51,517 nt of DNA from Rozella allomycis CSF55 (lineage: Eukaryota): contig KE561068.1 in the NCBI GenBank assembly GCA_000442015.1, forward strand, positions 62,001 through 113,517, written 5' to 3'. Both the position numbers and the translations under genes were made by a program. The notes under the pieces are model-generated. The model worked only from the letters and a program-made list of their open reading frames with translations, had not been told where the DNA came from and did not search any database. This document shows positions 6,001 through 48,226 of the stretch, in pieces. The number at the start of each line of letters is the position of its first letter. The first letter of the stretch is position 1.

Positions 6001-6317
6001 ATTCACATTACCTGCAGGTCAGAGCTCGGAAGCACCATCCGCAAATAATTCGCAAACCTGGTAATCTTTGTGGCATTCTCCTCGGTCTGGAAATCAATCA
6101 GAGTCGTTATTGCGTAAATGCCAGCTAGCTTGTCATTCATGCTCGGTGAATGGATCAGCTCGAATATTCGCTTGTTCACATCGTTCAGGTACTTGCTGAA
6201 TTGCTCCGCAGACATTTCGCGTGATATGTACGTTATGTGGTTGTATAATTCATGGCTCGCTGGAACGCGTGTCTCGGTGACACTGAGGTCGCCAAGAATT
6301 CGTACTAGTTCCTCCAT
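1..6317 (-). CDS. TOR: TOR kinase (HEAT, FAT, FRB and start of the kinase domain; runs off the window start); 13 short introns; one in-frame TAG at 840-842
   Basis: Spliced translation gives hallmark TOR motifs [73 protein letters not shown]. Introns of 26-30 nt (e.g. 5986-6011) restore the frame. ATG at 6317. Confidence 0.97.
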
Positions 6318-6407
6318 ACTGGAGTTTAGCCACAATCTTGGGGATCCCAGAATTGGACTATTTGGTTAAAAATGTCACAAAATAGGTTATAATTTTAGAA
6401 ACATTTA

Positions 6408-16000: not shown

Positions 16001-17850
16001 GACTTCATAAATGGATACGTTTCATTCCTCATTTCAATTTCAAAATCAATTGCGATGGAATTCATTGAATCTCCCACAGGCAACAATTGCGCCATTTCTA
16101 AATAAGTCCAAATCTGAATCGCTATTTCTGGAGTTCCAGAAAAACTACAAATAGCTTCAACTATCATTGCTTTCACTGAACATGGAACTCTAGTCCCAAG
16201 TAAATTAAACAACAAATAAACAACCTTCCATTGCATATTCTCAAATATCGTTATCCTAGCAGCCACTGAATAACTACAAACATTCTTCAACACTATCAAA
16301 AACGATTCTAAAACTGGTATATCCTGCGGCGACAAATCTTGATTCAAATTGTTTCTTAAAAATTGATTACAATTATTCAATGTATAAAGCATATGATTCC
16401 ATGATAAAACTGGATTCAATGGCGTAAAATTTGCACTTGATCCAAAGAACTCATGAACTGCCATTGCACATCTTTCTCCAATAGCTAAACTACCAATCAC
16501 TTGTAAATACATTGGTAAAATATTCACAGATCTTGTATCACCAGCCATCTTTATAAATTGATACAATTTTCCATCTTTGTTCCAAAACACTAACCCACTC
16601 TCTGGTCTCTGAAACACTTTTGCAATCAATTCTAAAAACAGCTCAAAATATCTATTCTCATTCTTCTTAACAGCTTCATCTTCCTCTTGCATTGTCTTCA
16701 ATTTCTTTATAGCCCTAGAAAAGTTTTCAATCAATCCAACCACAAATTCTTCCAACATTGATTTAATATAATCATGAACTAGCGCAGACTCTATCTGAGC
16801 ATTATTAAATGAATTCAATATCCAAACAAACACATCCCCTTCAATACATGAATTAAACATTGAAGCCAACTTTTCTTCATTCATACCAATTAACTGGTCA
16901 ATTTCAGTTCCTTTAACATCTCTAGCAACCTGCACATACAATGCCCATTGCAACTGCGCAATCTTATTCATTTTACCAATCTTCTCCCCAATCCTCTTCA
17001 AAAACTCAACTCCAAACAATCCACTATTAGCCTTTTCCTCACTCGGCGTAAAATCCAAAGAAGCCATCAAACAATACACACCAATAACACTCTCATTTAC
17101 ACTCAACCAATCAACCAAAGACTCAATCTCCTTTTCATCAAACTGTCTCTGGTAGCTAATCTGAAACAAAACATACATCAACATTGTCCTCTCTTCCTCC
17201 AAACTCATCACATGTCTCGCATGCACATTCTCTCCAAACACCCCAAACCTACTCTCCTTGCTAACACTCTCCATCCTCTTCGCCTTTTCGCCCAGCACCC
17301 TATACATCCCAAGAATCATCTCCACAATCCCGCTCCCATCCTCGCTCTTCGCAAGCACACGCCCCATAAACCCATCCAGCACATACCTCAGCCCAGCATT
17401 CACATTCCCATCCGTTGACCCAACACACACATCATACATACACAGCAACATACTCATCCTCTCCCCATGATACATATTCATCACCCCCTCAACCACATTC
17501 CCGCCACCCCGCGGAATCTGCAAAACAGCATTCAACAACTCACAACAACTAAGCTCGTTCAACTCCAAATAGTCGCTAATCAGGAGAGCCAACTGCCGGA
17601 ACTCTTTCGTCGCACTAATACTAAAACCACTCGGTAGACTAATAACACTGCCCTCGCTCTCAACACTTTTGCGGTCCTTGGCACTGCGCGACGCATTCTT
17701 CAACACTTGGCGGAATTTCGGCTCCAGATGATGCAGAAGCGTGCTCAGTGTATGAAGATCACTAGAATCGATCTCGCGCTGCGGATAGAGTCGGCGAAGA
17801 AGCGTAGAAAGATACTGAAAAGGTCGAGATAACTGTTCTAAATTTACCAT
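13074..17850 (-). CDS. NUP192: Nucleoporin Nup192/Nup205; one 4.5-kb exon plus two short 3' exons
   Basis: ALLISDYLELNELSCCELL, EIEMRNETYPFMKSFIKLL and IPEGLGAGSRIPGIVPFVEFV match Nup205-family motifs. 28- and 27-nt introns extend the frame to TAA at 13074. Confidence 0.85.
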
Positions 17851-18122
17851 GACCAGGGTTAAATGTTAGGGAGACTAGGAATCGTACTTGCTTGGACTGT
17901 GATACAGAAACAGAAGATTGGAAGTGAACTTTGAAAAAAAATAAAGCTTCAAAGTATAATATTGTAGGAACCTGGCAAGTTATGCTGATTATTGGACAAT
18001 TATTTCCGCCAGAATAAGTCGACCGTCGAAAGTACTTACATAGTCTGTTTTAATTTATAAATAAATAAAATAAAAATGTTAAAAAAAGGATCTAAATACC
18101 ATTCCATGGCAAAGGACAAAAA

Positions 18123-18657: not shown

Positions 18658-19817
18658 TTATTTATTTTTACGGTTCGCATATTTTGGAAAGTGCCTCTTG
18701 ATGTTGTAAAACTTCCCGATAGCTTTAGCAAGTTTTCCCCACTTCGTCTTTGGTAGTTTATTCTTTTTTCTTCCACTTGAGCTTCCATTAGGATGATCAC
18801 ATGCGTTCATGGCAAGGCCTCTCACACTTGGACGAATCCCCAGATGTCTTGATTTTCCAGCTTTTCCAAGATCAACATTTTGCCATTCAGGATTACTGAC
18901 AGTTCCAATCACAGCGCGACAATTGATATGAAACTCCTTTGTAAAACCAGAGGGCATTTTAATATACGCGATCTCCTTCTCCAGATCTTTGGATAACAGC
19001 GTAGCCGACGTTCCAGCCGCGCGTACAAATATAGCGCCTGATCCAGGTACTTTTTCAATGCTACAAATAGTGGTTCCATCTGTTATATTTTTAAGCTCTA
19101 TCATGTTGCCTTCATTTCCTTCTTTGCCATTGGTTATAATTTGTCCTTTTTTAAGGCCGTTTGTAGCTAGAATATAGGATAACTCGTCGGTAACCATATT
19201 TCGTACCAGTGCTATATGGGCAGTTCTAAGTGGATCATAGTCGATTCTTTCAACGATCTGAGGCTCAGTTACTTCCCTCCATCGATCAAGCAACCTAATA
19301 CGTTGTTTATGACCGCCCCCTATATGGCGCACTGTGATTTTACCCTATAATGCGATCTTATCAATTTTACCGTGCGGTTTCTCCCTCCCGATTTAAACTT
19401 GCGAAAAGTCAAATGCCTGGGTACTAATTGACCGTCTACAGACGTAATATCTCTTGCTCTGTATTCTACTGGCAAAACTTGCTTATGCCTAATTAATTTT
19501 GCCGCTTGTATATATTGGGATCCATTCAAATAATTCTTAAGTTTTCCTTCTTTAATTAAGGACGCAAGTATTTCTTGTTCATTCGTTGGAATTTCTAAAG
19601 GAAACTTCGGTACTGGTATAGGTTCCAGGTACGTCTGATATCTTCGCCTTGCCTTCTGGACTTCCCTGAGCAAGTTTAGAAGTTGAGGATCTGCTTCTGC
19701 GGGATTTTTAAACGCACTAGTTAGATAGTTATTGATAGTTATTGATGTTGAAAAATTAGACCTTAATGCAAAATTGACGAATGCTTTCATTGACAGTATT
19801 GTTTGCAAGGGTTTCAT
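18658..19817 (-). CDS. MRPL2: Mitochondrial ribosomal protein uL2m
   Basis: SGGRNRT|GKITVRHIGGGHK (26-nt intron 19345-19370), YDPLRTAHIAL, RPSVRGLAMNACDHP; N-terminal presequence-like extension. Confidence 0.93.
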
Positions 19818-20020: not shown

Positions 20021-20197
20021 TATGAAGAAGAATAAATTCATAATAATTATTAGTAATCTTAGTGATTGATGGACATCATTTGGTATTCAAGTTAGAATGC
20101 GAATTATGGTAATAAATTTTTTGATTATTATAATTATTTACATCTTTATTTATTCACATTGTGTTTTGTGAAATTTCGATTGTTTGTTTACAAGTTC

Positions 20198-22806
20198 ATG
20201 GCAATATATCGATTGAAGGAGTTGATAAAGTCCATTCGTGCCTGCAAAACAGCTGCAGATGAGCGAGCCCTTATAGCAAAAGAGAGTGCTGCAATAAGAA
20301 CAGCGTTAAAAGAGGACAACTTGGATAATAGGTATTACAATGTTGCAAAACTTTTGTACATACACATGCTGAATTATCCTGCACATTTTGGCCAAATAGA
20401 GTGTCTTAAACTAGTTAGCTCACCCAGATTCGCTCATAAACGCCTTGGTTATCTTGGAATTATGATGTTACTTGATGAGAATCAAGAGGTATTGATGTTG
20501 GTGACAAATTCCCTAAAAAGGTGGAAGAAATTAATGTATAAAATAGTGATATGAACAATTCTAATATGTACATTGTTGGTCTTGCCTTGTGTACCCTTGG
20601 GAATATCTCATCTGTTGAGATGGCTAGGGATTTGTGCGGAGAAGTTGAAAGATTGCTTGGATCTTCTAATTCATATATTAGAAAAAAGGTAATACTGATG
20701 GCTGAATGCAATAGGCGGCCTTGTGTGCATTGAGGATAGTTAGAAAGGTTCCCGACTTGTATGAAAATTTTGTCAGTCGATGTCGAACTTTGTTAAATGA
20801 AAGAAATCATGGTGTGTTGATGACTGGTATCACTTTGATAACTGAACAGTGTTTGATTCACAAAGATTCCTTGAATGAGTATAGAAAGGTTAGTAATTCC
20901 TTTGTTGCTAATAGATGGTACCGAGTATTGTGAGACACTTGAAGTCCCTTATCTCTGGACAAAGTTCCAGTGAACATGATGTTGGGGGAGTCGCAGATCC
21001 ATTTTTACAAATAAAGATTTTGAGACTACTGAGAATTCTTGGGAGCGCTGATGCAGAGTCATCAGAGCAAATGAATGATATTTTGGCGCAAGTAAAATTA
21101 CAATTGAAATATTTAAAGGTTGCTACTAACACTGAAAGCTCAAAAAACGTTGGCAACGCCATTCTATATGAAGCGGTTTTAACTATTCTGAATATCCAAG
21201 CTGATAATTCGTTGAGAGTTATGGCGATTAACATACTTGGTAGGTTTTTAACAAACAAGGATAACAATATCCGCTATGTAGCATTGAATACTCTGACAAA
21301 GACAATAGACATTGGTAACGCCATTTAAGTGGCTTCACGAAAGATAATAATGCAGTTCAACGCCATAGGAATATAATTATAGAATGTCTCAGGGATGCTG
21401 ATATTTCTATTAAAAGGAGAGCATTGGAACTTGCTTTTGCGCTGATCAATGAAAACACTATTAGAGTTTTGGCCAGAGAACTTTTGTTATTTTTGGAAGT
21501 GGCTGATAATGAGTTTAAGGCATCCATGGTTTCCAAAATATGCCAATCAGCTGATAAATATTCACCTAATACTAGATGGTACATTGACACAGTTTTAAGA
21601 ACCTTTTCAATTGCAGGTGATTTTGCAAAGGAAGAAGCAATCTTTAATTTACTTAAAACAATAGGACATGCAAAAGAAATTCAAGCTTATGCGACTTGCC
21701 AATTCTTTCAAACAATGCAGTCTGGAAATTTGCAAGTATAATGCATTTTGATTTATTAAATCCAGGAAGGGCTAGTTTTGTCTTCCCTTTGGTTAGTTGG
21801 TGAATTTGGGGAAGTTTTATTGAATGGTGGAAAAATAGAAGATGAAGATCTGGCAAAGGTAACAAAACTATTTATGGATTATATAAGTATACTGAAGATG
21901 AAGTGATTGGAGTTGTTTCTTCCATTTTGAATACTTCTGATCAATTAGCAAAGCAATACGCAATCACTGCTTTGGTTAAATTATCTTCACGATTTAAAAA
22001 TTCTTCAAATGAAATAAGATCTTTAATCTCAAAGTTCCAAAGCAGTCTTGACGTTGAATTACAGCAAAGATCAGTTGAATATTCGAGTCTTTTGTCTCTT
22101 GAATCTGCTATTAAGTATTATATGTTTTATTCGTTAAAAAAGAAACTCTATTTTGGAAAATATTCCGCCAGCCCCAATAAACAAGGAAGACATTGGGCAT
22201 TCTAAAGAAAATGATGATAAAATTACTAAAACAAAGAATGAAACAGCTGACGTATTTTTTACTCTTGCATAATTATTCTAGTTTTTACTTGAACTTGAAT
22301 CACTTGGGCTAGGAGGAGCAAATCAAACGATTTCAAAACAATCAAAACCTGAAGCAACATTAGATTTAATGGCAGATATATTTGGCCAAACAATCACGTC
22401 CAAGTCACCAGCAGTGCAATCTTTTCAGGTCTACAACAATAACGGCCTTGTCATTACATTTGATCCGTTAAAAGACTCGGCTGGTAACGTAAACATTGAC
22501 GTAAAGTTTCAAAACAACTCCTCTATTATGATTTCCGATTTTCTTTTTCAAGCAGCTGTGCCGAAAGTAAGTGATGGTTAGTGAAAATGATAGTCTATGA
22601 AATTACAACTATTGCCTCCTTCTGGATCTGTCATTTTACCTTCAAACATTATAAATCAGCAAATGAAAGTATCCAATCCTTCAAATGTAATGTTAATTTA
22701 GCTAGAATTATAGGCACCCTTGAAATTTCGTCTAAAGTGGACTTTTATTGCAAACAATTCACAAGCTGGTGACCAAATTGACTATTCCTTTCCCATTCAG
22801 ATATAA
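20198..22806 (+). CDS. APL4: AP-1 complex gamma adaptin; 11 introns of 26-30 nt
   Basis: [60 protein letters not shown] ear [15 protein letters not shown]. Confidence 0.96.
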
Positions 22807-25806: not shown

Positions 25807-27238
25807 ATGTCGCTATTTATTTCATTCAATGGATTCGAAGCAAAATTTACAGCAAGACAAAGTCAAACATTAATGGAAATAGTTAAGGAAGCATGTTCAC
25901 ATTTTAATATTGAAGAATTCTACCTTTATTGTTTTCGGTAAACTTACGATCAAAAATAGCCAGACAAGGGAAGACAAACTTTGATAACACCATCACTATG
26001 AAATCATCTGGATTAACTAATGCAGCCCATGTCGATTTGGTGCGTTATTTGGACTGTGTACCAAATGATACTATAGAACTTGCTTTGCAAGTTGTGGACG
26101 AAGGCCGTGTGAATCTTAAAGTCCGAACAGTCGATTCTTTGTGGGATATACTACTGATAGCCGAAAGAGAGTAATTTATTTACAACTTAACTTTATCTTA
26201 GATATCCAAACTTAAATTTTACCAAGAGATGCAAAGAGTCTATATACATGATGCCTGTTATCACTATATTAAATCAAACTGTATGGTTTAATTGTAGTCC
26301 ATTATAGTTTGACTTTATTGACTTGTTGATGAAAATTAAATTGTATTGTCTTGGCATAAAGAAAGGGAGGATACTATGTAGATTAATGTTTAAAGAGAGT
26401 GAGAATAATGTAGAGAGTTATTTACCTATAATGGAAAATTACGCATCGGATAATAACAGGATTGATATAAAAAATGAGAATGTGCTGCCAGCAAACTCAG
26501 GCCCTTTGGATAATCCAAAAAACATGATTTCGGAGAATAACACTGGAAGCCAATCTGCTGAAGTAGACATTTTAAATAATGGAGAAGATAAAGTTCTATT
26601 TGATAGGCGTGTTCAGGTTTTCCAGCCGTCAGAAGTGAACGATATTTGTAAAGATATTTAATTAAATAGAAAGGTGACTTACCTGATAATTTTTATGAAT
26701 TGACCCCTGAAGAAGCTAAAGCACAATATCTTCAAATGGCCAAGAAAAGAAATGAATTGGAAAATGCACCTCTTAAAACAAAGTCAATAAGGGAAAAAGA
26801 GATCGAACAAAGAAAGTTGAAATACCCAAAAGTAAACAATAATATTTCTCTTATCAGGCTACTTTGAGGTTTAAGTTTCCAGATGAAAAGATAATTCAAG
26901 CGACTTTTCTATCTTCAGAAACTTTGTCGAACATTGTTGACTTTATTAAATGCTCATCAACAGAGGAAGATTTTGAACTGTTTGTATCGCCACCAAAAAG
27001 AATTTTAGCAAATAAAGATGCCACATTATTTGACATGAAGTTGGTGCCCGCTGCATTAATTTATGTTTCAAGTCGCAAAAATAGTACAAAATTGTTACAA
27101 AGTATTTTAGTTCAACTTAAATCTAGTTTTTTAGAATCCGTAAAGGACCTTCCATCAAAATCGAACACAGAAACACAATTCACTTCTACATCAGTAAAAC
27201 CTTCAACAAAGCCGAAATGGTTAAAACTATTTAAATAA
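25807..27238 (+). CDS. TUG/ASPSCR1 (Ubx4-like) UBX-domain protein
   Basis: N-terminal TUG-UBL1-like exon (TLMEIVKEAC..SGLTNAAHVDL), DLPDNFYELTPEEAK, PLKTK, LRFKFPDEKIIQATF, C-terminal KPKWLK. Confidence 0.85.
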
Positions 27239-29053: not shown

Positions 29054-29461
29054 TTAAACGAGAACTGGTGAACAGGCCGGTCAATTTCTTGTTGTTGATT
29101 CTCAGCGGATGGTGATAGAAAGAGATTACAAGTACATAACTGTTGTGTCGTGTGACATGTCTTCTAGGAAAGTATCGGGAATTTTACAACTTTAGTTGGT
29201 TCGTTTGGAACTTCACTTTGTGTCGCCTGCAATTACATTTCGGTGTGGTACATATGAAAAATCTCTCTTCTTTAATTGTTGTGGCTTGTGCTTTATAATG
29301 TTCCTGCAGTAGCGTACTTTAGATATCTTTGATCTTAACTAGCATGGTACAGCACATATTTTTGCCTTTTGTTGTTTTGTGGGGGCCTTATATTTTTGAT
29401 GACAAATAAAATTAGAAAAGTGCCTGCTAATTGCTTCCTGTATCACCCGCGCCACCAATAA

Positions 29462-32400
29462 ATGAGGTCCTCTGAGTCAAAGGAGTCCAAACATCCTTAT
29501 CGTGAAAAGCCATTACCAGAACCCATCATACCTATGCCTATAGATCAATCCGTCTCAAATTCTAGGGTTAGCTCTGATAAAGATTACTGGTTCGAAATGG
29601 CGGCAAAGAACAATGCCGATGCCATGAAAAGTTTTTTGCAAAACATATTGGATGTAAACATTAAAGATAGAAAAGGCAGAACTGCCTTAATTGCTGCATC
29701 GCGATATGGTTCCACAGAGGTGGTAAAATGGCTTTGCTCGATAAATAATACAAATATAAATGAATCAGGTAAATCAAATGCCATGCTTTCAAAAAAGACA
29801 ATGAAGGACAATCCGCTTTGCATTTTGCTGTGATGGGCGGATCTGATTTCATGCAAATAGTAGAGTCCTTACTTTCTAAAGGCGCAAATACGGATAAGAG
29901 GAATAAAGTAATTCTTTATTGCATATAATATAGCATTCATGGACACCACTAATGATGGCTGCATACGACGGACAGTTGGGATTATGCAAAGTTTTAATGA
30001 CGTACGGTGCCGACCCTACATCAACGAATCAGCAAGGAAAAACAGTTCTGGATTTAGCACAAGAGTCGGGAAACCCAGATGTAATAGAATTAATTGAATC
30101 TGGTATTACATAAACTCCCAATTTATTTAGCCGTCTCAAAAATAATGGAGATGCCTGAAACCGCAATTGAAATGAGTTCCGCAGCCACAAGCTTGAACGA
30201 ATTAAATAGGAATTCTAATGTACCTGGGAGCTTACTTGCTCAAAGATCTCTTAGAAGAAAGCTAACGCGTCACGATCAACCACCAACACTGACAAAGCTG
30301 CCAAAAAGCCAAACATACCCCGAAAGAAAACGTCAAGATATGAAAGATGCCATTACGCCTCATCCTTCTATAAAGCCTGTTGATTCTATTAATGAAACTA
30401 CCTTTGCTGGGAGCTGCTGGAGATTCTTTTCGCTTATGGTGACTTTCTGGGCCCCTTCGTTCATTCTGTCATCTTTTGGAATGAAGGATCCACAAGTTAG
30501 GCAAGCATGGAGAGAGAAAATGGCATCATGTTTTATTATTTTGTTAGTTTCAGCGTTGCTAGCGTTTTTATCATTTGGCTTCTCTCAGTTGGTGTGTGTA
30601 CCGTATCCAAAAATCAGTACAAGTCAATTCCAAGGAATGACAGCTACAATTATAAGGGGAAATGTTTACGAGATGAATTCGCTGATCCAAGGTCATCATG
30701 GTGCATCAAAGTCAGCGTTACAAGGTTTTGTGGGAAATGACGCAAACCTGCCTTTTTCTGTGAGCAGTTTATGTCCTGCGGCATTGCCATCTAATGTTAG
30801 TTGTGCCAATACATTTTGTCACAGTACAGCAATGTTGGCTAAAGCAACGCCTATGGGCAAGTTGACGTACCGATGGGAAGATGTCCTTGGCAAAACTGGA
30901 TTTTTAGTGTTTGATGGAAAAGTCTATAATTTAAATTTATATTTACAAAGAGATAAAGGATTTTTAGGGGCAGATGTAAATAACGCACTACAAAAAGTAG
31001 CTGGGAAAGATGCTAGTAGAGAAATTATGGAGAATCCAATTTTGAGTAACGTTATTGGATGTTTAGATCAATTATATTTTGTCGGAATGATTGATGTATT
31101 AGAGCCCGGGTGTGTTGCTTCCAGACTTGTGATCATTATTTCCACTGTGATTTTATTCATTATAGTTGTTACAAAATTTATATCTGCGGTTGTTTTCAAT
31201 TGGTTTATATCGAATAGTCTTGGGAAAATCAGTAGAACTAAAATACCTAAAAGTAACGTTGTCATGCTTGTGACTTGCTACAGTGAGGGAACTGAATCAT
31301 TGAAAACTACATTTGATTCTTTAGTGGCAACTGATTATGACAATAGAAAGAAGTTATTGTTTGTAATTGCAGATGGAAATGTAATGGGATCAGGAAATGC
31401 TAAATCAACACCTGAATTGTGTAAAGATCTTATGGAATATGAACCCTGGTCGACTGATCCAGTACCCCAAGCGTATTGTTCAATAGCAGAAGGACCGAAA
31501 CAAATTAACATGGCAAAAGTATATGCAGGATGGTACGAACATGCCGGTAATAGAGTTCCAATGATTTTTGTTGAAAAATGTGGTGGACCATCTGAGGCGA
31601 ATGGACCAAAGGCAGGGAATAGAGGGAAAAGAGATTCACAAATTTTGTTAATGCAGTTCTTCAGTACCGTTACTTTTAATGAACGAATGACGCCGTTGGA
31701 CTATGAACTATTTTGGAAAATTCAAAAGTTGACTGGCCTTTATGCGATTGATTATGATATTGTAGCTATGGTTGATGCTGATACTCTAGTTAAAAGGGAT
31801 AGCATTAAAAGAATGGTATTTTCAATGGAAAGGGATCCCAAAGTTATGGGGTTATGCGGAGAAACAAAGATTGCAAATAAAAGAACCAACTGGGTTACAA
31901 AGATTCAGGTGTATGAATATTACATAAGCCATCATCTGGGTAAATCTTTTGAATCTATTTTTGGTGGTGTTACTTGTTTGCCAGGTATAAAAGATGAATG
32001 AAATCAAAAGGTTGCTTTTGCATGTATAGATTTAAAGTTAGAAACAAAGATGGGACTATCGTTCCCATTTTAGCTAATCCTGACATTGTTCAATCATACT
32101 CTGAAAACAAAATAGAAACTCTACACAAGAAGAATTTGCTGCTACTTGGGGAAGATCGTTATTTGACAACTTTAATGCTTCGCGCATTTCCCAAAAGAAA
32201 ATTAATTTTCGTTCCAAACGCCGTCTGCAAAACGTAATATATTTAGTCTTTCTCTAATCTTCAAGGGTCGTTCCCGATGAATTCAAAGTTCTATTGTCAC
32301 AAAGAAGAAGATGGATCAACTCAACAATTCATAATTTAATGGAGTTAGTGTTTGTAAGAGAACTTTGTGGTATATTTTGTTGTTCAATGCAATTTGTTGT

Positions 32401-33007
32401 TGTTTTAGAACTCATTGGAACAGTTGTGTTGCCCATTTCATTTCTCCTTTTGATCTTTTTAATATTCTACACTATAGTTCAACGATCTGTCGAAAATGCT
32501 CTCTCATTGTTATTTTTCGTAGCTACAATATTTTCGCAAGCCTTTCTCGTTATTTTTACAAAGAGAAAATTATCTTATGTAGGTTGGATGTTTGTATTCA
32601 TAGCTGGTATGGTAATTTGGAATTTTGTTCTTCCGTTGTACGCCTTTTGGCATTTTGATGATGTCAGCTGGGGTGCAACAAGGAAAATTCATGGCCCTGA
32701 CACTGGCCACGGGGATGGCACCCATGATGAGTCGTTTCAAAACAAAATCACTAAAAAATATTGGATAGATTATGAACAAGAAAGAATACAAAAAGAAAGC
32801 GCCAACAAAGAAATTCTTACTACTTCCACTCACCCTTCACAATTTCAAATGCGTTACAATCTTTCTAACCATGGATATAACATTAACCATCCTCAACCAC
32901 TTTCTCAGTCATTCAACCCTAGACGAGAAAGTGTATCTAATAGACGCTCTTCAATGGATAGACTAATTAACACTCCTTCGAATCAAAGAAAACCAAATAA
33001 ATATTAA
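29462..33007 (+). CDS. Class IV (Chs3-like) chitin synthase with N-terminal ankyrin repeats; introns 29769-29797, 29908-29933, 30103-30130, 31985-32010, 32234-32265
   Basis: About 5 ANK repeats ([35 protein letters not shown]). CHS motifs [46 protein letters not shown]. Confidence 0.9.
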
Positions 33008-33050
33008 ATCTAAAATTTCAATTTTTAATTTAAAATTTTATTATTTGCGT

Positions 33051-34050
33051 TTATTGTTTCTTTATTGGCTCAGAGATATTTGAATCCCAGGGATACGGTC
33101 CGCCTGCCACACAAAACTCCAAATCTTCTTTGGTGATAGAATCCCAATACTTGTAGACCATCATAACTGCAAGCAAATTAAATGTAGTCCCAAAGAAGAG
33201 CCCATCGATATAATGTGTGGCCATGTCGCATACCATGGTAGAAACGACAAAATTTAGAATCAAAGCCACGATGAAGGACAGGACTCCAAACAAAATATCA
33301 CCTTTTTAACAAGAGATGTTATTTTTACCTAATGGCCAACGATCATCCAGTGTATTCACAACAAGGAATATCTGGGTGATAATGTAAACAATAAGGGCAA
33401 GTCCGTTAACACAAAAATATATAATGAAAAGTGGAGTTGTCATATTAGGCCCGAGTCCCGCAAATTGAAGAAATGTACCAAGCGCTATAAAAAACACTAC
33501 CGCAAATACTCCAAGACCAGTCAATCGGAAAAATAGCAAGGATTGCCTGGTGCCATCTTCAGCCCATTGAAACCCAACAAATCCATTAAGTAATAAGATC
33601 CAAAACATTGAGGATATTAATGCCACGTGAACCGCCGTTATGACCTACTGTTTTTTCCATATTTTTATTACATTATATGCTGTGGAGCCAGTCGGGATGA
33701 TATTTGATAGCAATAGAAACTCTACGATAGTTAAAAAGAGATAGAGATAGAAAAATTGTACCATTTCCTTACGGCCTCATGTAGTTGAATTGTTTTACTT
33801 ACCGACGGCAGTGTATTTGCTCTTTATATTATAAATCATAATCAACGTCATTATTATTGCTATTATATGGACCACTAAAGTTGCTTTTATAACAATGAAA
33901 AATCAATTTACATGGTTGAAACATTAGAAACCCGTTGATATCGACATTTCTCGAGTAACAAGATGGATCATCCAATTTGATCGCCGAGCATAAAGGCAAT
34001 GAGGCCTGGGAGCAAAAATACGAAAATGATCCAAATGAAAATGTTGACAT
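33051..34050 (-). CDS. CHS7: Chitin synthase export chaperone; 4 introns
   Basis: FGSFSYFC..SLPLC, CYSRNVDI, YTAVGRKEM, LLLNGFVGFQWAEDGT, LDDRWPLGD, HYIDGLFF, MMVYKYWDSITKEDLEF. Confidence 0.95.
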
Positions 34051-34091: not shown

Positions 34092-35976
34092 CTATCTCTC
34101 GAGAAGTTTATTTATACTTTTCAAAGCATCCACATTCCGTAGCAAATGAGATTCCTATTTCTAAAGATAAGATATATCACGTACTTCAGAGGATATTTTA
34201 GATAAGCCCGTTTCCAAATTAAGAATTAAATATTGAAATTGATTTATATCATCTTTTGACATGCGTGATTTATTTTCTTCAATAAATTTTAAAAATACAG
34301 CGCAAACTTCGTTAGTTAATGATAACATGACTTTGCTGAATGATGAATTTGGCAGTACAGTATACCATTCTCTGGACAAATGAATTAAATGTTTCATTGC
34401 ATTTTTAATGGAATTTTCTAGATTTATAATGATTGCATCCTTAAGAGGCAATTCAGCAGTTGTTAGCTGAGGACAGACAAATTTCAGTAGCGACTCCTTT
34501 TGTTTATCCTACGTTCAAATTATCAGAGATAATTACAATTTCTCCGAGAAATATTTTTATAGCCCGATCTCTAAATAATGGTATCAAATCTATGAAGGTG
34601 TCATTATCACGTAAACTTAAACGATGGTGATAGGCAAGTGTGGATAAATGATATGTAATGTACAAACAATCATTATGAAAAACCATGGCTCTTCTGGTAT
34701 CTTTTTCGATTTCTGATTTCCAATAATGAAATCCAATCGCCCAGTAGAGTTCTAGGATAGATCTACAATAAGAATATCTTTCTATCATCCTATTGAATAG
34801 CATTGATAATTTTACTTTTCTTGAGATCCTAGAATTTCATAAATCATTTCGACAATAGTTTGAACTTGAACGCTAACTTTGCATTTCTCTAACTTCACTG
34901 CTTTGTTAACATTTTCACGCGTTTTCTCACTATTTTTTACTTTTTCTTCCAACGAAAAATGCAAACCGCCTATTCACACCAAATTTATAATCCTTGCCTC
35001 TTTCAGTAGCATCGCTAACTTCTGTAATGTTCCTGTCACCGCTCGATAATAATTCCCTTATAGAATGTAGAATTTCATTTTTTCTTTTATTAAATAGTGA
35101 CCCTGTAGTCTCATGGAATAAATCCACTAGGTAATGAGGATCATGATGACAGTAGCCAAGTTCAATTATATTCTCTTCAAATGAGTTGATGTCTTCAATG
35201 TTTAATTTCTTCAAACTATCCTTCGCTTTTAAAAATAAATCATGAATTCTTTGAATAATGACAGATGAAATCATTTCAAAAATAACTGTGTACTCATCGT
35301 CGTAAAGTATATCACGTATGAATTTTAATATCAGCAGCAAGTTAATAAATATATTATCACAAGAATTTACTTTAGATTCTTTATTCCATTCCATTGAAGA
35401 GACTATCGCTCCAATGTTGACCTTTATTGCACCACTTTTTAATTCAATAAACGGAGCGACAAAGTTCATGCAAATAACTTCAGCTAACCAATCCAGTTTT
35501 TTTTCCAAATAAATTGATAAGCAAGAAGATTGGATTCCCTTTACTAAGTGATCCATAAACTTTTCTCCCCTTGAATCAATTATGTTGATTGTAATTGAAC
35601 AATGATGATCTGAAATTGATTCAAACTTTACAAAATCATTATGCTTATCTTCCCAATTTATAATAAAAATATTTCTTTTCATGGAATACATTCTTTTCAA
35701 AACTGGCTTCATTCTCGTAGACGTTTCTTGCAAATTCAAAACCAAGTCTTCAAGAACCTCTATGTCTTCTGAAATAAGATCTCGTTTCTGTAAATATGTG
35801 TGGATTTGATATATTTGAAACAAATACACATCTTCTGGTTTCTGTTGGGCGTGTGCTTTCAATGTATCTGTCATATCCAAGCAAAATCGGTCTGTATCAT
35901 CAAAATTTACATAAAAGGAATCCACTATCTCTGTTATTCTTGTCTTTAATTTAAAGCTTTGATCATCCAAAGTCAT
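34092..35976 (-). CDS. ZW10: ZW10/Dsl1-family kinetochore and tethering protein; includes GC-AG intron 34970-34997
   Basis: KCKVS, AMVFHNDCLYITYHL, TFIDLIPLFR, HLIHLSREWYTVLP match ZW10 C-terminal motifs. Confidence 0.78.
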
Positions 35977-36095
35977 TGTGAAATTTTGAGAAAAATCGGC
36001 CCACTGAATTGTTAAAGCATAAGCTTTTTTGAATTGAGAGTTTAAAAGTTAAACCTTATAGCACTAAAAAGCTTGAACTTAAAGTAAAGTTCATA

Positions 36096-36535
36096 ATGGC
36101 TAGAGTTTCTGCTGTGGCAAGAAAAACTCATGGGGCCAAGAAGAGAAGGCCAGCCCCTGTTGCCATTAAAAGAGTTTTTGTCCCTCCGAGGGTAGAAGAG
36201 CCTGTGAGAAAAAGGCGCGCCCGTCCCGGTGTGGTTGCATTGCGTGAAATTCGAAGATACCAAAAATCAACTGAATTACTTTTGAGAAAGCTGCCTTTCC
36301 AACGCTTGGTTCGGGAAATTGTTCAAGACCTTGGACAAGATTATAGGTTTCAATCCACAGCGCTATTGGCGCTTCAAGAGGCAACCGAGGCATATTTAGT
36401 GAATTTATTTGAAGTAATAGTTAATGGGATATATAAAAGGATGTGCAATATTGTGCTATTCACGCCAGAAGAGTAACAATTATGGTGAGAGATATCCAAT
36501 TGGCACTACGTTTAAGAGGAGAGAGAAAGGATTAA
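36096..36535 (+). CDS. Divergent histone H3 variant (CenH3 candidate); intron 36414-36439
   Basis: Histone fold [45 protein letters not shown]; non-canonical N-terminal tail. Confidence 0.92.
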
Positions 36536-40096: not shown

Positions 40097-40791
40097 TTAT
40101 AATTTTGATTTTGGGTAAACATCTATTTTAAATTCAGGTGTAATTCTTAGGCAAACACCGTTTATCGATCTATCGTCCAAAGCTATTTCAAGAGCTTTTA
40201 TAACATAAGATATTGGGATGAGGTATTTTTCATATAGACGTTTGTCCACGCCTTTTAGTAACTTTGTTTCTGCAAATGAAGGACACAAGCACGCTATACG
40301 AATTCCGTTCTTTTTTGCATAGTCGCCTAATGCTCTAGTGAAACTAACAATACCCGCTTTAGATGCAGAGTAAACAGGCGCGCCTTTGAAAGGGTATATT
40401 CCGCTCAACGAAGATATATTTACAATGAGCCCATTTGGTTTCATTAGATTAAAAGCCATGTAGGTTCCATGTATAGTTGCGGTGAAATTGACATCAATCA
40501 GTCTTTGATGCTCTGACCATTCTGTATTTAAAATCCTTTCGACGATTCAATTATGCCGGCATTATTAATAAACAAATCGAATTTTCCGTGACTATTTGAT
40601 ATATCTAACAAACTTTTTTTGAACATTCCTTGATTTGTAATGTCGCATGGATAAAACATTGTCCCGGGTGAATTCGTTTGTAATGAATCGGCCAAATCAA
40701 TTATGCAGCAAAAATAATTTCTTTTCTTTAACATTTCTACAAAAGCAGTACCGAATCCACCATTTCCACCAGTAATGACAGCTATTTTCAT
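40097..40791 (-). CDS. Short-chain dehydrogenase/reductase (15-PGDH-like) with a frame break near 40530
   Basis: TGGNGGFG, NNAG, NISS, YSASK, LCPSFAET. Confidence 0.88.
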
Positions 40792-40822: not shown

Positions 40823-43800
40823 ATGTCAAAGTTTGCATTTCATGTAGAAAAGGATGAGGAAGAGGAAGAGTCGAACAACCCATTTATCGACAATAATTCG
40901 AGCCGAAATAATGTTTCAAGAAAAGGGTCAACAAATAACCCATTTGAATTGATGCTTGAAAAGAACAAGAATACGATGTCGCAGATGGAGTTGCAGAAGA
41001 ATAAGAAGGATAAAAATGAGGAAATAAAAAGCAATAATCCATTTGAGAATATGATCTCGAGTAATGAGAAAAAGTCCAAGAACTCTGTGGCCAATTTGTA
41101 TTCGAGTAATAATCCATTTGAAGAGGAATTAAAATCTGAAAGAAAAAATAGTTTGGATGAAATGAAGAGACGGGGTTCGGTGAATGAGATTAGAGATAAA
41201 AGAAAAGCATCCATGTTTAAACCTGAAGACGTTGAAATTTCTGCAATTGATGGAGACAAGTCGCAAAATTTAGGATCTGGAGAATTAGAGACAATTGAAT
41301 GGACAAGACAGGAGGAGATGGCTGTTTTGGAAATGTATCATTTGGAAACATTACAGCCAACCGAGTGGAATGACGCACCAGCAATGAGGAAAATGGAAAG
41401 CATGGCAAGATTGAATATTGATCATCCAGCACATGCATCGATAGCCAATATAGCTGAACATTTGCATGAAGAAGAAGATCCGCTTGGTATAAATGCAAAG
41501 TAGGCAAAGCAATTTAATGATTATAAAGGAACAGAAGGAATAAAGGAATGACTCTACAAAAGACAATATCAAGTTTAAATTTAGATGGGAGTGGGATAAA
41601 GTTTTCTAGCAAGAATTTTGATCCTGTGGCGTACCTTATCCATGTGCATGGGTCAACATTATATTCTGATTTGATTAAAGGATCTGAAAGTAAAATATAA
41701 TTTTGAAATTTAAAGATTTGAAAAGATCTATAAAGGAAAAACAAGAATGGTCAAAAAAGTTGGTGAAACAAAACTTTGATAGGTTTGTGCATGCCAAGAC
41801 TCTTGTAGATAGTAATGTATTGATGATGAAATGAATATTAGATGTTTATAGAGAGATGAAGGATAATGTGTTTAGAAAACCAGAGTTTGGGACAAGAGAA
41901 GCAAACAAGTTTATTTCAGAATCATTTAACGTCTCCGATCATCTTTATAATCCAATTATTGAGAGAAGAGATAAAACTGAGAAAATTCGACTTCAACTTT
42001 CAATTTTGGAACAATTTAAATTTTTCTTTTCTTTACCTAAATTAATGAAATCATATTTGATCAAAGTAAATCAAATTGCTTAAATTTTAATAGAATGAAT
42101 TTGATCAAGCAGTAAAAGATTATAAAAAGGGAAAGTTTGTTATAAAGTCACATGAGCAAGATGTGTTTAAACACATTTGGAAAGAAGTTTTGTTGACTGT
42201 TAAATCCATTCAAGAAAAGTTAATAAAGAAATTATCAGATTCATTTCAAGATGTGAATATTCAAGAGAAAATAATTCAATCTTTGATAGATTTGGATATT
42301 GAAAGCGATCCAATCTCTATTTATTTAACAAATCAGAAATCTTTTATAATTTCCAAAATAGATTCAATAAATAAAAAATTCAAATATTTAGATCAAGATA
42401 TTTTAAGAAATTATGAAATCAATAGACAATCTTTAGAATATCTCTACAAGGACAAAAAAGATCATATTCAATATTTAAGAAAAATGTTAATAATTTCTGT
42501 TACAGATCAAATAGATTCAAATTTCTCAAATAATGTTCAACATTCATTGTGGAATTCTAGATTAAATTTAATAAATGAAATAAACAATGAATTGATGTTG
42601 CAAATTACTAATTTATGGAAAGTTTCTAAACCATTTCATTCAAAATCTAAATCTATCATAAATCAAGTTCAAAATATTCTTGAAGAAATATCAAACATTT
42701 CAATCTCTTGCATTAATGAATCTTTTTCTTTCAAAAATAATCTTTCTAAAATTGCTTCAAGTGACGTTCTTGCTATTTCGCATTACACCTTGAAAATAAT
42801 AAATAATTTATCTTTAACATTCAATCAAATTAAAAGTTTAAGACAAAACTCAAATCTTCTTTACAATTACGCAGAATTTATCTTAAACTTGAAAAACTCT
42901 TTTATAGATTTTATTTCAACATCTTTAATGAATGGTATGAAATTAAATTTTATTTTAATAAAGAAATAAATGAATTTCATGTTTATGAAACTTGGTCCTC
43001 TGATCCAGACCCATTGGATATTACATCATGCACAAGGGTAGCTTACAGAATAATGAAATACGCCTTGCGATCAATTTATATTCTCCATTCAACAGAAATA
43101 ACTATAGAAAAAGAAAATTATCCAATAGAAAATATCAAATCTACTTTTATTCAATGTCTAACCTCATATCTAAAAGGACTAAAATTTACAGCATTTCAAT
43201 TTGAAGATTTCCTCTTAGAACAATCAGCCTCTGGAATCTACAATTTTTCAAACACTTCAGAAAAACTATCCTCAAATCCAATCTATTACATTTCCACAAG
43301 CGGTGCTCACATTCTAGTTAATAACAATGTAATAATTTTTTATCGTCATTAAAAGGAAAACAGATACTTAATACTTTTAGGAAACCTTTTATACGCAAAA
43401 AATATAATGTTCCCAAAGTTAATTTCCCTGTTTAGCGAGATGTTTGAATGTAGAATTGAAATAAATGTAACCATATTCGACTTAATAAATAGAATATCAT
43501 CAAATTAACAGAAGAAATTGAAGATTCTTTATTTGATTCTTACTCTAATCCAATTCTCATTACAGTAAAGGAAATCAATACGCATGGTTTATCCTCCCCT
43601 CCGAATTGGCACTCATCATTAACCTTTGAAGGTAATCCATCATTTATTTATAAATAGATATTCGATTTTACGTGCCAAAAGTATTAATGCAAATTGTACA
43701 TCACTTCTCCCAAATCATGGACGTCTCAAAACCATTGGTAAACCGCTTCATTCCCTACTTTGTTGAAAATATTTACTTTTACATTCTTGAATACTTAGCA

Positions 43801-44040
43801 TCAATAACTTCAATTTCAAAGGGCGCATGCCTCCAACTGAAACTCGAATTTGACTACTTGGACGCTGTTCTGGCATCTTTCTACACCTCAAAAGCAGAAA
43901 GAAACTTTTCAAAATTACAAGAAACTATCATAAAGATGTCCAATTACTATGAACTAAACAAAGATGAAATAGAGAGTCTTAAAACTAAATTGCAGTCCAT
44001 GATACAATCCACAAAACTACAATTCTACTGTCTTTCCTAA
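40823..44040 (+). CDS. SEC5: Exocyst subunit Sec5 (EXOC2) with an NPF-repeat N-terminus; 8 introns
   Basis: DPLG, SSKNFDPVAYLIHVH, LVKQNFDRFVHAK, LEQFKFFFSLP, DYKKGK, STKLQFYCL. Intron 41500-41528 joins the NPF exon in frame. Confidence 0.9.
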
Positions 44041-45838: not shown

Positions 45839-46050
45839 GCTAATCCTTCAAATAAATTTTAAAGTTAATGAGTTTCAGTTATCTCCATCCTTTCCCTTTG
45901 CAGAATAAACCAAAGGACATCACTAGACTTTAGGCATTAGATTGGGAAAGGCTCCATAATACCTGAAACGCGCAGTAATAAAAGTTATCCAACAAAGAAT
46001 ATTTTCCCATTCATGATAACATTGTACTATCTCTTTATGAAAATTCCAAC

Positions 46051-48226
46051 ATGGAAAGTCGAAATCGTTTAACAGGCATAGTCTACGATGAAAGAATGCT
46101 AGATCACAAAACTAGAAAAGATTACGTCGGTGTTCATCCGGAACGCCCAGAAAGGATCAAAGTTATATATGAGGCTATCCAAGATGTGTTGAAGAATAGC
46201 CCCGAAAAAACCATACATTATGCCATAGATGAATTAGACATGGACTGTCTAAGTATTGTTGAGGAGACACATGATCCCGAATACGTTAGACAGATTATGC
46301 TTTTGAGCAGTAACTACAACCGTCTTACTTATTCAGCGAGAAATGATATAGAATTAGACGCGATGCAAAAGAAATATGACTCAATATATTTACATCAACA
46401 AAGTGGAATTTCTGCCTTTATTTCATGTATGGGAGCTATTACATTGGCCAAACGAATTTTGCACAATGAAATCCAAAACGGTTTTGCCATTATTCGACCT
46501 CCTGGTCATCACGCTGAAACTAACTGTGTAAGTATTTTTGAAGCAATTAATTCAGGCAATGTAATATTATTGTAAAGTTGTATTCAGGGGATTTTGCTTT
46601 TTAAATAACGCGGCCATTACTGCAAATTATCTTAGAGCTAATGGAGTCGACAGAGTTTTGATTGTAGATTGGGATATTCACCACGGTAAGAAAGGATTGT
46701 TATATTTTGAAAGGAAACGGAACTCAAAGTATATTTTTCAATGATCCAAATGTATTGTATTTTTCTATCCATCGATATAACAACGGTGAATTTTATCCAG
46801 GTCGAAAAGATGCTTCGCCTGGTATTGTAGGAGGAGCGAGTGCATTAGGAAAGTAAGATGACCATGGAGATATCATAGAACCGTCAATGTGGGATGGTCA
46901 TCGTCAGGGGCTACTGACGCAGATTATTTATATGTATTCAATAATATTCTTATGCCTATTGCCCAAGAATTCAATCCTAATTTTGTAATTGTTTCAGCTG
47001 GATTTGATTCTGCAAAAGGGGACCCCATTGGTCAAACTTTAGTGACCCCGGAAGGTTATGGTCAAATGACTTACATGCTTTCTTCTTTAGCTAATGGAAA
47101 GGTTTTGCTACTTTTAGAAGTAAGAAAAAGTAACAATTTCTGAGTCAGGGTGGATACAGCTTGGATGCAATAAAGTCCTCGGCTGTTTCGTGCTTTAAAG
47201 TATTGACAGGTGATAGACCACAACCGATTTCAGATTATAATCTACGTAAACAAGCTGTTTTTGATGCAGAATCGACAATTATGTCCCATTCACGATATTG
47301 GAAGTGCTTGAAACCTAAATATGAGAATCTTAATGTTTCACATAAACAATGCAAAAGATTAAAAGAATGTATATCTAATTCAAGATGCTCAATATTAACG
47401 GGAAAGAAAATGTTTCCATTAAGCGTTGCAACAGAATACGATGAAATTTTCCCTCAAGCGACATTTTCAACGTAAACATGATTGTATTATTAAAATACAA
47501 AGAGCAAATTTACTAACCAACAATTCAATTTTAATTGTTAACGTCCATGAAATACCATTTGTTAAAGCCAATGAGCCTTTGTTAAACAGTCATATAAATG
47601 ACCTCACTGCTACAGTGGTAAGATAATTCCAATTATATTTTATGATATTCCCTGCTCTTCAGTACATTGATTATTTTCTAAAGAATGATTTTGCTTTAAT
47701 TGATATTTCTATTGGTCATCGTCAGAACAATGCTGGGCAACCAGGTGTAGAATCTTACGTCGCATGGGAATTGGAAAAAATGGAATCTTACTTGATTAAA
47801 GTTATTGCAGCCTTTGTAGAGTAATAGCAATTGTGTATAGTTGATAGTAAAACTGTAGCTCCAAGTATCATTTTCATTGGAACTGGAAAGCCCTTCAAGG
47901 CTCTTTTAAGAATATTGAGCAATATAAAAACTGAATCATCAACATTCAAACGAACCAAAGCTCTTATTGGATTCGTGACAGAAGTTCCCGCAATATCCCC
48001 GCAACCAAAGATTCAAGATTGGTTTCAAAGAGTAAAACAAGAAATGTTCTGAAAATAGATAAGCCTTATTTACTTGTCCCATATAAATATTAAAGAAGGT
48101 GTAAAGTTAAATTTGCTACCTTTTCTTAATTGTCATTCCGCAGGAAATATGAACTTGTACGAAGCCCTAGAAAGATACGAACGAAACGTGTTGGAATTTA
48201 TTTATTCAATCAAAAATCAAAAGTAA
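46051..48226 (+). CDS. HDA1: Class II histone deacetylase (Hda1/Clr3-like) with C-terminal Arb2-like region; includes a 5-nt microexon
   Basis: HPERPERI, RPPGHHAE, GFC, DWDIHHGNGTQ, VSAGFDSAKGDP, LLEGGY. Confidence 0.93.

Follow-up and report, generated by a model that had tools for sequence, protein, structure and literature searches.

An ankyrin-repeat array predicted to be spliced in frame to a class-IV-type chitin synthase in Rozella allomycis

A locus of the early-diverging fungus Rozella allomycis CSF55 raises the question of whether an ankyrin-repeat coding region and the chitin synthase coding region that follows it are halves of one gene or sources of two products and, if they are one, where such an enzyme belongs among the chitin synthases and what the repeats might do for it. 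The locus lies within a 51,517-nucleotide stretch of contig KE561068.1 (the window), in which the analysis described here was carried out. The explanation that we favor, and hold with good confidence as a whole, is a single six-exon gene whose spliced mRNA would encode an ankyrin-chitin synthase of an old lineage with a cytosolic, partner-binding array. Its structural part, namely one spliced gene with a conserved architecture that falls into a single clade, appears very likely from sequence comparison.

Gene structure and the junction between the two halves

The locus occupies 29462-33007 on the + strand, and its six exons form one open frame of 1134 aa once spliced; all five introns are of the GTA..AG type and 26-32 nt long. 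The parts, with Pfam E-values, are as follows.

29462..29768, +, exon 1: start codon, N-terminal tail, ankyrin N-cap and repeat 2 (Ank_2 6.7e-09, Ank 3.1e-07)
29769..29797, +, intron 1: 29 nt, GTAAAT..AAAG, phase 1
29798..29907, +, exon 2: ankyrin repeat 3 (Ank 6e-07)
29908..29933, +, intron 2: 26 nt, GTAATT..ATAG, phase 0
29934..30102, +, exon 3: ankyrin repeat 4 and C-terminal capping repeat, ending ...IES (Ank_2 6.9e-09, Ank 8.8e-09)
30103..30130, +, intron 3: 28 nt, GTATTA..TTTAG, phase 1, at the ankyrin/synthase junction
30131..31984, +, exon 4: variable linker, conserved N-terminal region, hydrophobic segments, CHS4/cytochrome-b5-like domain, first half of Chitin_synth_2
about 30865-31086, +, CHS4/cytochrome-b5-like domain in exon 4 (CHS4 PF22997 2.4e-13, Cyt-b5 PF00173 4.3e-07)
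from about 31186, +, first half of Chitin_synth_2 in exon 4, with the DAD and QVYEY motifs (8.9e-103)
31985..32010, +, intron 4: 26 nt, GTATAA..AAAG, Chitin_synth_2 profile 278/280 across it; also in the public model P0121
32011..32233, +, exon 5: middle of Chitin_synth_2 with the LGEDR motif (1.4e-32, profile 280-353)
32234..32265, +, intron 5: 32 nt, GTAATA..CAAG, profile 353/355 across it; also in P0121
32266..33007, +, exon 6: QRRRW, C-terminal membrane segments, SWG motif and tail (1.9e-64, profile 355-527)
33005-33007, +, stop codon TAA of the synthase, at the end of exon 6

The ATG at 29462 is immediately preceded by an in-frame TAA, and the codon split by intron 1 encodes a D that aligns with a conserved D of the orthologues. 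The answer to the first question hinges on intron 3, whose removal brings ...IES and AVSKIME together, the GCC codon at the seam being divided by the intron, and places the junction between residues 195 and 196. The first-pass annotation had proposed precisely this in-frame join by a 28-nt GT-AG intron; the frame is indeed open after removal, and the deposited protein EPZ33276.1 has the same junction. Left unspliced, the ankyrin frame continues for G-I-T and ends at a TAA (30111-30113) inside the intron, again as that annotation had read it. Among GT..AG pairs of 15-89 nt that keep the frame, the junction offers three (28, 70, and 82 nt), and the 28-nt pair alone belongs to the 26-32 nt class. 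That this is the intron size used throughout the window, a further claim of the earlier reading, is borne out by the 11 other candidates listed, which are 26-32 nt long and, like intron 3, begin with GTA and are poor in G+C; five of the 11 are bridged by an unbroken Pfam profile (TOR FAT 76/77, adaptin 292/294, Chs7 222/221, and synthase introns 4 and 5). We infer that intron 3 is spliced in vivo; metatranscriptome contigs bearing the same species label gave no match to 29300-33100.

If the 28 nt were instead retained, the locus would give two products, a free ankyrin protein of ~198 aa ending at the TAA at 30111 and a separate synthase starting at ATG 30145, the first ATG in the synthase frame. 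A second public model for Rozella allomycis CSF55, P0121 (934 aa, without ankyrin), is exactly the synthase from that ATG, and the genome is compact, as illustrated by the downstream Chs7 export-chaperone gene, which lies tail-to-tail with the synthase gene, their stop codons 43 nt apart. However, the gap between the TAA of the ankyrin frame and ATG 30145 would be only 31 nt, too short to accommodate both a terminator and a promoter; the segment 30103-30130 resembles the other introns of the window; and EPZ33276.1 splices the junction. The first-pass suggestion of a synthase beginning at ATG 30145 thus coincides with a public model, but this model reflects an annotation choice and provides no evidence of intron retention.

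EPZ33276.1 (1098 aa) is the deposited model of the same gene, with the same IES/AVSK junction and a synthase sequence that matches the translation of the window. It differs from our 1134-aa model in starting at the second ATG (29534) rather than at 29462 and in removing a 36-nt in-frame GT..AG segment inside ankyrin repeat 1, which we keep. Residues 57-69, which span the skipped 36 nt, align with conserved residues of the orthologues, and this 36-nt "intron" is therefore probably an annotation artefact; each of the two public Rozella models probably carries an error. In the supplement to Liu et al. 2017, EPZ33276.1 is listed as PF12796 + PF13637 + PF00173 + PF03142 and filed as CHSIV, and that survey called the ankyrin-synthase combination a one-off (PMC5353729). 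A fused gene model has been public for years, and the fusion in Rozella is not new.

The two public annotations disagree at exactly the 28-nt junction, as might be expected if both forms were made, with regulated retention of the intron deciding whether the full ankyrin-synthase or a short ankyrin protein on its own is produced; an mRNA that keeps the intron is not expected to translate the downstream synthase efficiently, and the in-frame stop in the intron would give the short product a defined end. Different pipelines explain the disagreement, however, and the argument from the stop codon applies equally to any stop-bearing intron of this genome. We consider such a switch improbable.

Domains of the predicted protein

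A Pfam scan of each exon gives the order Ank, CHS4, and complete Chitin_synth_2 for the predicted spliced protein. The ankyrin module, at about 29591-30101, draws on all three upstream exons and comprises three full repeats with N- and C-terminal caps, in agreement with the earlier count of about five repeats. Ank_2 scores 36.6 bits in exon 1 and in exon 3 (Pfam cut-off 27.3) and Ank 29.9-35.6 bits in exons 1, 2, and 3 (cut-off 21.1), so the tandem 33-residue units exceed the Pfam gathering score and belong to the ankyrin repeats. The synthase half matches PF03142 (Chitin_synth_2) over nearly its full length (profile 3-278, 280-353, and 355-527 of 527 in exons 4, 5, and 6) and carries the catalytic motifs DAD (residue 744), QVYEY (788), LGEDR (859), and QRRRW (900); QXXEY, (L)EDRXL, and QXRRW are the names given to these motifs in PMC13561034. 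Judged by both profile and motifs, the protein is a division 2 chitin synthase of the Chitin_synth_2 type. Neither the myosin motor PF00063 nor DEK_C PF08766 is matched by Pfam in any exon, and with CHS4 located N-terminal of the catalytic domain this is the domain composition of class IV. Hydrophobic segments at residues 324-353 and 518-557, found by a crude hydropathy measure, fit a topology in which the ankyrin and catalytic domains are both predicted to be cytosolic. Among solved structures, three chains named "chitin synthase" are matched, weakly (about 3e-08, 36 bits) and within the catalytic core only; the ankyrin-synthase arrangement has no structural template there.

Relatives of the enzyme and its place in the family

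The first-pass annotation did not know ankyrin repeats as a class IV architecture and had noted that their being common in zoosporic fungi would speak against its proposal. An architecture search yields 47 protein clusters that combine Ank with Chitin_synth_2, from various early-diverging fungi (Glomeromycotina, Mortierellomycotina, Endogone, Calcarisporiella, Zoopagomycota, and Blastocladiomycota); with zoosporic Blastocladiomycota among these and EPZ33276.1 already annotated, the combination is common to many early-diverging fungi and the novelty of the architecture does not hold. The domain order of Rozella recurs in the synthases of, for example, Ambispora leptoticha (P0001), Geosiphon (P0009), Blastocladiella emersonii (P0002), Entomophthora muscae (P0011), Endogone (P0013), Calcarisporiella (P0048), Basidiobolus (P0241), Syncephalis fuscata (P0244), and Mortierellomycotina (P0265-P0281); several orthologues are misnamed "ATP-dependent RNA helicase". 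All eight orthologues rescanned with Pfam show Ank, then CHS4, then Chitin_synth_2. Ankyrin-bearing orthologues are 42-47% identical to the Rozella protein over nearly the full length, and its ankyrin N-cap and C-cap align with theirs, whereas its array is ~three repeats shorter than in the Glomeromycotina proteins and its linker is shorter than in other ankyrin-bearing synthases.

These relatives also bear on the choice between one product and two. In 15 of 20 ankyrin-bearing homologues, a single BLASTP segment runs from the ankyrin part (query residue 44-66) to residue 955-1129 at 42-45% identity, and in the nearest relative, the environmental ENA protein P0122, in which ankyrin repeats lead into the synthase within one protein, the alignment covers residues 146 to 1083; all of these segments, that of P0122 included, span the junction. 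In at least five fungal groups a single protein contains both parts, and 15 orthologues align across the junction in one segment, which argues against separate products; these we judge very improbable. The reading of the locus as one spliced fusion gene is thus supported by comparison with relatives and matches the deposited model, although the fused orthologue models are themselves mostly gene predictions. Since the linker right after the junction is not conserved among the orthologues, homology speaks for the architecture without fixing the precise splice sites. A metagenome scan with exon 4 returned 30 loci, none with ankyrin upstream of the synthase and none with a Chs7 match; all resemble canonical class-IV-type genes, and their N-terminal regions are about 30% identical.

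Phylogenies were built on synthase columns only, with rows chosen from 240-341 fetched proteins, and on these catalytic-region columns alone the Rozella enzyme groups with other ankyrin-bearing synthases. In an IQ-TREE analysis of 45 rows and 748 columns, a 17-row clade, 15 of whose members are labelled as ankyrin-bearing, the Rozella enzyme included, has support of 100/100, and the Rozella enzyme pairs with P0122 (100/98) at the base of this clade. FastTree recovers a clade of 24 (21 ankyrin-labelled) among 80 rows with support of 100. In a 62-row tree with three myosin-type synthases as the root, one 31-row clade takes in all 29 labelled rows (SH-aLRT 86, the support having fallen to this value after the addition of long-branched Mortierellomycotina rows). 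The 28 unlabelled rows form its sister group (99), and branching within the clade tracks fungal phyla. Across the FastTree and 62-row trees, three rows inside the clade lack an ankyrin label: Syncephalis plumigaleata, whose sister species S. fuscata has ankyrin, a Thamnocephalis model marked "partial", and a fragment of 455 aa.

The same tree qualifies the class assignment. The Rozella enzyme lies in the 59-row ingroup (support 100), to which the myosin-type synthases are the outgroup, and this places it on the class IV rather than the class V/VII side; it is not nested in the 28-row clade (99) of Cryptococcus, Coprinopsis, and Tilletia, dikaryan class-IV-type rows that stand in for named Chs3 sequences in the trees, and hence does not belong to canonical class IV (Chs3, IVa) as represented there. 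The "class IV" label of the first-pass annotation accordingly holds in that Liu et al. filed the protein as CHSIV and the phylogeny it had proposed excludes class V/VII, but not in the strict sense, the enzyme being sister to, rather than within, the dikaryan class-IV-type group. We also considered whether the ankyrin clade is the class IVc of Goncalves et al. and tentatively rejected this identification, by labels rather than by sequences: in their supplement, Mucor sequences are entered under class IVc without any ankyrin term (PMC5122149).

Canonical class IV, the yeast Chs3 type (superclass IV of Goncalves et al. 2016, PMC5122149), shares with the Rozella protein Chitin_synth_2, the QXXEY/EDR/QRRRW motifs, and a preceding cytochrome-b5-like/CHS4 domain, and both are devoid of myosin and DEK_C. 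In contrast, none of the 28 rows in the canonical class-IV-type sister group has the N-terminal ankyrin array of the Rozella protein.

Possible roles of the ankyrin array

We posit that removal of the 28-nt intron (30103-30130) would give an mRNA whose product, about 1134 aa long, is a membrane chitin synthase. In this protein a cytosolic array of ~five ankyrin repeats and a poorly conserved linker would precede the conserved N-terminal region of the class-IV type. Hydrophobic segments would then flank the CHS4/cytochrome-b5-like domain, and the catalytic GT2 domain, complete in its signature motifs, would be followed by a cluster of membrane segments at the C-terminus. The lineage of ankyrin-bearing division 2 synthases would be old, vertically inherited, and sister to canonical class IV (Chs3 type); it appears to have been kept in Rozellomycota, Blastocladiomycota, Zoopagomycota, and Mucoromycota and is not seen among Dikarya.

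For the array itself, known systems offer an analogy. Class V/VII synthases resemble the Rozella protein in combining a division 2 synthase with a cytosolic accessory domain at the N-terminus, although they form the outgroup to the Rozella ankyrin clade in the 62-row tree and their accessory domain is a myosin motor, whereas that of Rozella is a passive repeat scaffold without DEK_C. The myosin domain has been linked to trafficking and site-specific secretion (PMC5122149 and PMC13561034). The Rozella synthase gene adjoins a Chs7-type gene and, in yeast, the Chs7-type export chaperone serves Chs3 (PMC11803449). The first-pass idea of a built-in regulatory or localisation module is reasonable. 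The array could be a cytosolic protein-binding platform that steers trafficking, placement, or activation of the enzyme, a role that would parallel both the class V/VII myosin motor and the separate adaptors Chs4/Skt5, Bni4, and exomer, all of which yeast Chs3 needs; we regard this reading, made by analogy, as a real but tentative possibility. Alternatively, the array could act in cis on the catalytic domain of its own enzyme, as an autoinhibitory or oligomerising element rather than as a platform for partners or trafficking. The predicted cytosolic location of both parts would permit such contacts, and the array is kept beside the synthase throughout the clade though repeat number varies by about three; the conserved array positions, however, mostly coincide with the structural ankyrin consensus and favor neither reading. 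An action in cis seems unlikely to us.

A bolder proposal, which we put forward as doubtful, is that the ankyrin-bearing enzymes constitute an ancient class of fungal chitin synthases that has gone unrecognised, a sister group of canonical class IV which would predate the split of Rozellomycota and have been lost in Dikarya, with the array as a built-in adaptor. The full texts searched, which include few subscription journals, contain no paper that joins Rozella, chitin synthase, and ankyrin, nor was an ankyrin-bearing class found described there; the main texts of Liu 2017, Goncalves 2016, Torruella 2018, and a 2026 chytrid paper never use the word "ankyrin". If the proposal is true, the array would stand in for the myosin motor of class V or for the distinct proteins on which Chs3 relies for trafficking and activation, and Rozella, whose wall is built at certain stages only, would have in it a means of turning on chitin deposition in the right place.

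For this window alone the significance is small, the gene and its fused model being already public, and the value to specialists may lie in the wider pattern: the "one-off" of 2017 now extends to 47 clusters across Rozellomycota, Blastocladiomycota, Zoopagomycota, and Mucoromycota, all in one clade. If the array is a trafficking or regulatory handle, these enzymes would provide a second case, after the myosin-motor synthases, of localisation wired into a wall-building enzyme, and also a marker lost on the way to Dikarya.

Gene anatomy and public gene models

When region 29200-33300 was read with frames listed under the standard code, three short open pieces followed by one long piece proved joinable through very short GT..AG stretches. 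With boundaries placed by script, the exons are:

29462-29768, + strand, exon 1
29798-29907, + strand, exon 2
29934-30102, + strand, exon 3
30131-31984, + strand, exon 4
32011-32233, + strand, exon 5
32266-33007, + strand, exon 6

The five introns measure 29, 26, 28, 26 and 32 nt, all five starting with GTA and ending with AG, and the spliced frame stays open for 1134 codons up to a TAA stop (33005-33007). In a Pfam scan done on each exon rather than on the joined protein, ankyrin families exceed gathering scores in each of exons 1, 2 and 3, exon 4 contains CHS4 (2.4e-13) and Cyt-b5 (4.3e-07) domains, and Chitin_synth_2 spans exons 4, 5 and 6. At introns 4 and 5 the profile of this domain carries on unbroken (278|280 and 353|355), which validates both introns. 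The array (about 29591-30101) comprises three full repeats with a capping repeat at each end (N-cap and C-cap), and the full set of catalytic motifs (DAD, QVYEY, LGEDR, QRRRW) is present in the spliced protein. Once spliced, a single open frame carries the ankyrin array and, behind it, a complete, motif-bearing division-2 synthase, and this arrangement is kept as a lineage. The Pfam matches, repeat count and motifs show that what the first-pass annotation observed is right in every particular; frame reading also bears out the GIT-stop that it saw in the unspliced ankyrin frame and the ATG at 30145 that it offered as a synthase-only start.

The public model P0121, a hypothetical protein of Rozella allomycis CSF55 (934 aa, 100% identical) found with exon 4 among similar-length proteins, begins at that ATG. 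It lacks the ankyrin exons and equals residues 201-1134 of our 1134-aa model letter for letter, and is therefore the synthase-only alternative. Liu et al. 2017 (PMC5353729) list EPZ33276.1 / O9G_001627 (1098 aa) in their supplement with PF12796, PF13637, PF00173 and PF03142, and its printed sequence joins ankyrin repeats to the synthase at the same IES|AVSK junction; the proposed fusion is thus already the deposited gene model. EPZ33276.1 starts at ATG 29534 as opposed to 29462 and drops a 36-nt in-frame GT..AG stretch (29627-29662, + strand) in ankyrin repeat 1 of exon 1, removing 13 residues. This cut is probably an annotation error or artefact, because orthologues keep the corresponding residues, which are conserved in the multiple alignment.

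Short introns and neighbouring genes

Pfam matches on open-frame pieces place the following genes in the window, the Chs7 gene being next to the synthase:

1-6400, - strand, TOR kinase (FRB, FAT, mTOR_dom)
13363-17865, - strand, Nup192
18661-19344, - strand, ribosomal protein uL2
20096-22202, + strand, adaptin
26843-27235, + strand, UBX
~33051-34050, - strand, Chs7 chitin-synthase export chaperone (PF12271)
34164-36048, - strand, ZW10
36033-36473, + strand, core histone
40100-40546, - strand, short-chain dehydrogenase
42094-44037, + strand, exocyst Sec5
45982-46572, + strand, histone deacetylase

Tiny introns are the rule here. A scan within the window finds GTA..AG joins of 26-32 nt to be frequent among neighbouring open frames, and for five of them the Pfam profile continues without a break from one side to the other: those in the TOR FAT domain (1830-1859, profile 76|77), adaptin (21315-21343, 292|294) and Chs7 (33302-33328, 27 nt), plus synthase introns 4 and 5. 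The claim that the 28-nt intron belongs to a window-wide size class is upheld by these joins. Candidate intron 3, at the ankyrin/synthase junction (30103-30130), resembles the Pfam-backed introns: it has their length, their GTA start and their low G+C. Of the GT..AG pairs of 15-89 nt there, only three would keep the frame (28, 70 and 82 nt), and the 28-nt pair alone fits the local size class. In the one RNA run covered, metatranscriptome contigs under the same species label, nothing matched 29300-33100.

Almost all genes of the window (TOR kinase, Nup192, uL2, adaptin, ZW10 and Sec5) contain introns of 26-32 nt that begin with GTA; examples are 1830-1859, 13340-13367, 19345-19370, 21315-21343, 34509-34536 and 42066-42093. 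For a fungus this class is unusually narrow and short.

The Chs7 gene converges tail-to-tail on the ankyrin-synthase gene, with 43 nt between the stop codons. Its pieces cover profile positions 1-59, 116-222 and 221-286 of 287, and it too contains tiny introns. In yeast, the class IV enzyme Chs3 has Chs7 as its dedicated factor for ER exit, a role of Chs7 stated in PMC11803449, and by this analogy the pairing may be functional. No Chs7 match was found in 30 metagenome loci (0/30).

Homologues and descent

Among the best 120 matches listed in a search of longer proteins, with precomputed Pfam columns, 19 combine Ank, CHS4 and Chitin_synth_2, including all of the 16 best. Twelve come from Glomeromycotina (Ambispora, Gigaspora, Entrophospora, Diversispora, Funneliformis x2, Paraglomus, Geosiphon, Acaulospora x2, Rhizophagus, Glomus) and seven from Blastocladiella emersonii, Sorochytrium, Entomophthora muscae, Endogone, Calcarisporiella and two others; the similar-length search adds the ENA protein P0122. 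A profile search with an alignment of 14 ankyrin-bearing synthases (A1) returned Ank plus Chitin_synth_2 in 42 of the best 120 matches listed, 27 of them new (Basidiobolus ranarum, Syncephalis fuscata, further Glomeromycotina copies and 17 Mortierellomycotina). All searches combined yield at least 47 such clusters; no named Dikarya or Chytridiomycota row among the matches listed has both domains. Domain order is the same in all eight proteins rescanned with hmmscan: ankyrin at ~10-260, CHS4 at ~440-710, then the catalytic domain. The architecture had been called unfamiliar, a view overturned by the deposited fusion model and by the clusters in early-diverging fungi.

Five chitin synthases from Blastocladiella, Sorochytrium, Entomophthora and Basidiobolus (P0002, P0003, P0011, P0157, P0241) are named "ATP-dependent RNA helicase", evidently a propagated misnaming; all except P0157 bear ankyrin repeats. 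Class-IV-like synthases are fused to a kinesin motor (PF00225) in the chytrid Boothiomyces and to an alpha/beta-hydrolase (PF12697/PF00561) in the chytrid Gorgonomyces (the P0070/P0026 pair), and some Mortierellomycotina ankyrin-synthases (P0266, P0271, P0278) carry a RabGAP-TBC domain (PF00566). Such fusions may be genuine accretions, or the gene models may have been merged.

In a comparison of the spliced protein with the retrieved sequences, 15 of the 20 ankyrin-bearing ones aligned as a single segment of ~980-1160 residues at 42-45% identity, beginning at query residue 44-66 and spanning junction 195|196. P0122 aligns over residues 146-1083 (46.8%) and therefore itself passes from ankyrin repeats into synthase. 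The window's N-cap and C-cap match orthologue caps in position. The arrays of the Glomeromycotina proteins are longer by about three repeats. The array stops exactly at intron 3 and is followed in all aligned orthologues by a variable low-complexity linker; since this linker is not conserved, homology backs the architecture, not the exact splice sites. That the fusion is real is very probable.

Trees of rows chosen from the retrieved proteins used only columns matching residues 260-1060 of the window's protein, which leaves the ankyrin part without influence on them; labels came from precomputed Pfam columns.

Ankyrin clade in three trees (rows x columns; clade rows; labelled rows; support)
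FastTree: 80 x 759; 24; 21 (window included); 100
IQ-TREE, careful: 45 x 748; 17; 15; 100/100
IQ-TREE, quick, rooted: 62 x 751; 31; 29; SH-aLRT 86

The window pairs with P0122 (100/98, 45-row tree). The 62-row tree, with Mortierellomycotina, Basidiobolus, Syncephalis fuscata and second Glomeromycotina copies added and three myosin-type synthases as root, gathers all 29 labelled rows into one clade, sister to a 28-row clade (99) that has no labelled row and includes basidiomycete class-IV-type enzymes. Three rows within the ankyrin clade lack the label: a fragment of 455 aa, a "partial" model and Syncephalis plumigaleata, which adjoins ankyrin-bearing S. fuscata. Truncated models or recent losses explain these rows most simply. 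In the clade, Rozella and an environmental sequence branch first, Blastocladiomycota next, then Zoopagomycota and Mucoromycota groups; because this order tracks fungal phyla, it fits vertical descent.

A possible role for the ankyrin array

Crude hydropathy places hydrophobic segments at residues 324-353, 518-557 and 915-1016, which suggests a cytosolic position for both the catalytic domain and the N-terminus that bears the ankyrin array. Ankyrin repeats are protein-binding scaffolds. We posit that the array would be a handle, built into the enzyme, for its trafficking, placement or activation, because such repeats bind proteins and, by analogy, because the literature links the class V myosin domain to trafficking and site-specific secretion (PMC5122149, PMC13561034). 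As a rival reading, the array may play a regulatory role in cis. Yeast Chs3 depends on Chs7 for ER exit and on other, separate proteins in order to be exported and activated, and its N-terminal cytosolic region controls its itinerary, behavior that fits a built-in handle.

Ankyrin is unmentioned in the main texts of Liu 2017 (PMC5353729), Goncalves 2016 (PMC5122149), Torruella 2018 (PMC6299283) and a 2026 chytrid study (PMC13561034), and a 2022 survey of early-diverging fungi (PMC8778642) handles ankyrin families and chitin synthases separately. Our search, with subscription journals largely outside it, found no publication joining Rozella, chitin synthase and ankyrin and no description of the ankyrin-synthase clade, which is not a claim that none exists. 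The fusion is already annotated and is a member of a widespread lineage, not an oddity; what remains of value is the pattern across the clade and the neighboring Chs7 gene, rather than the window gene as such.
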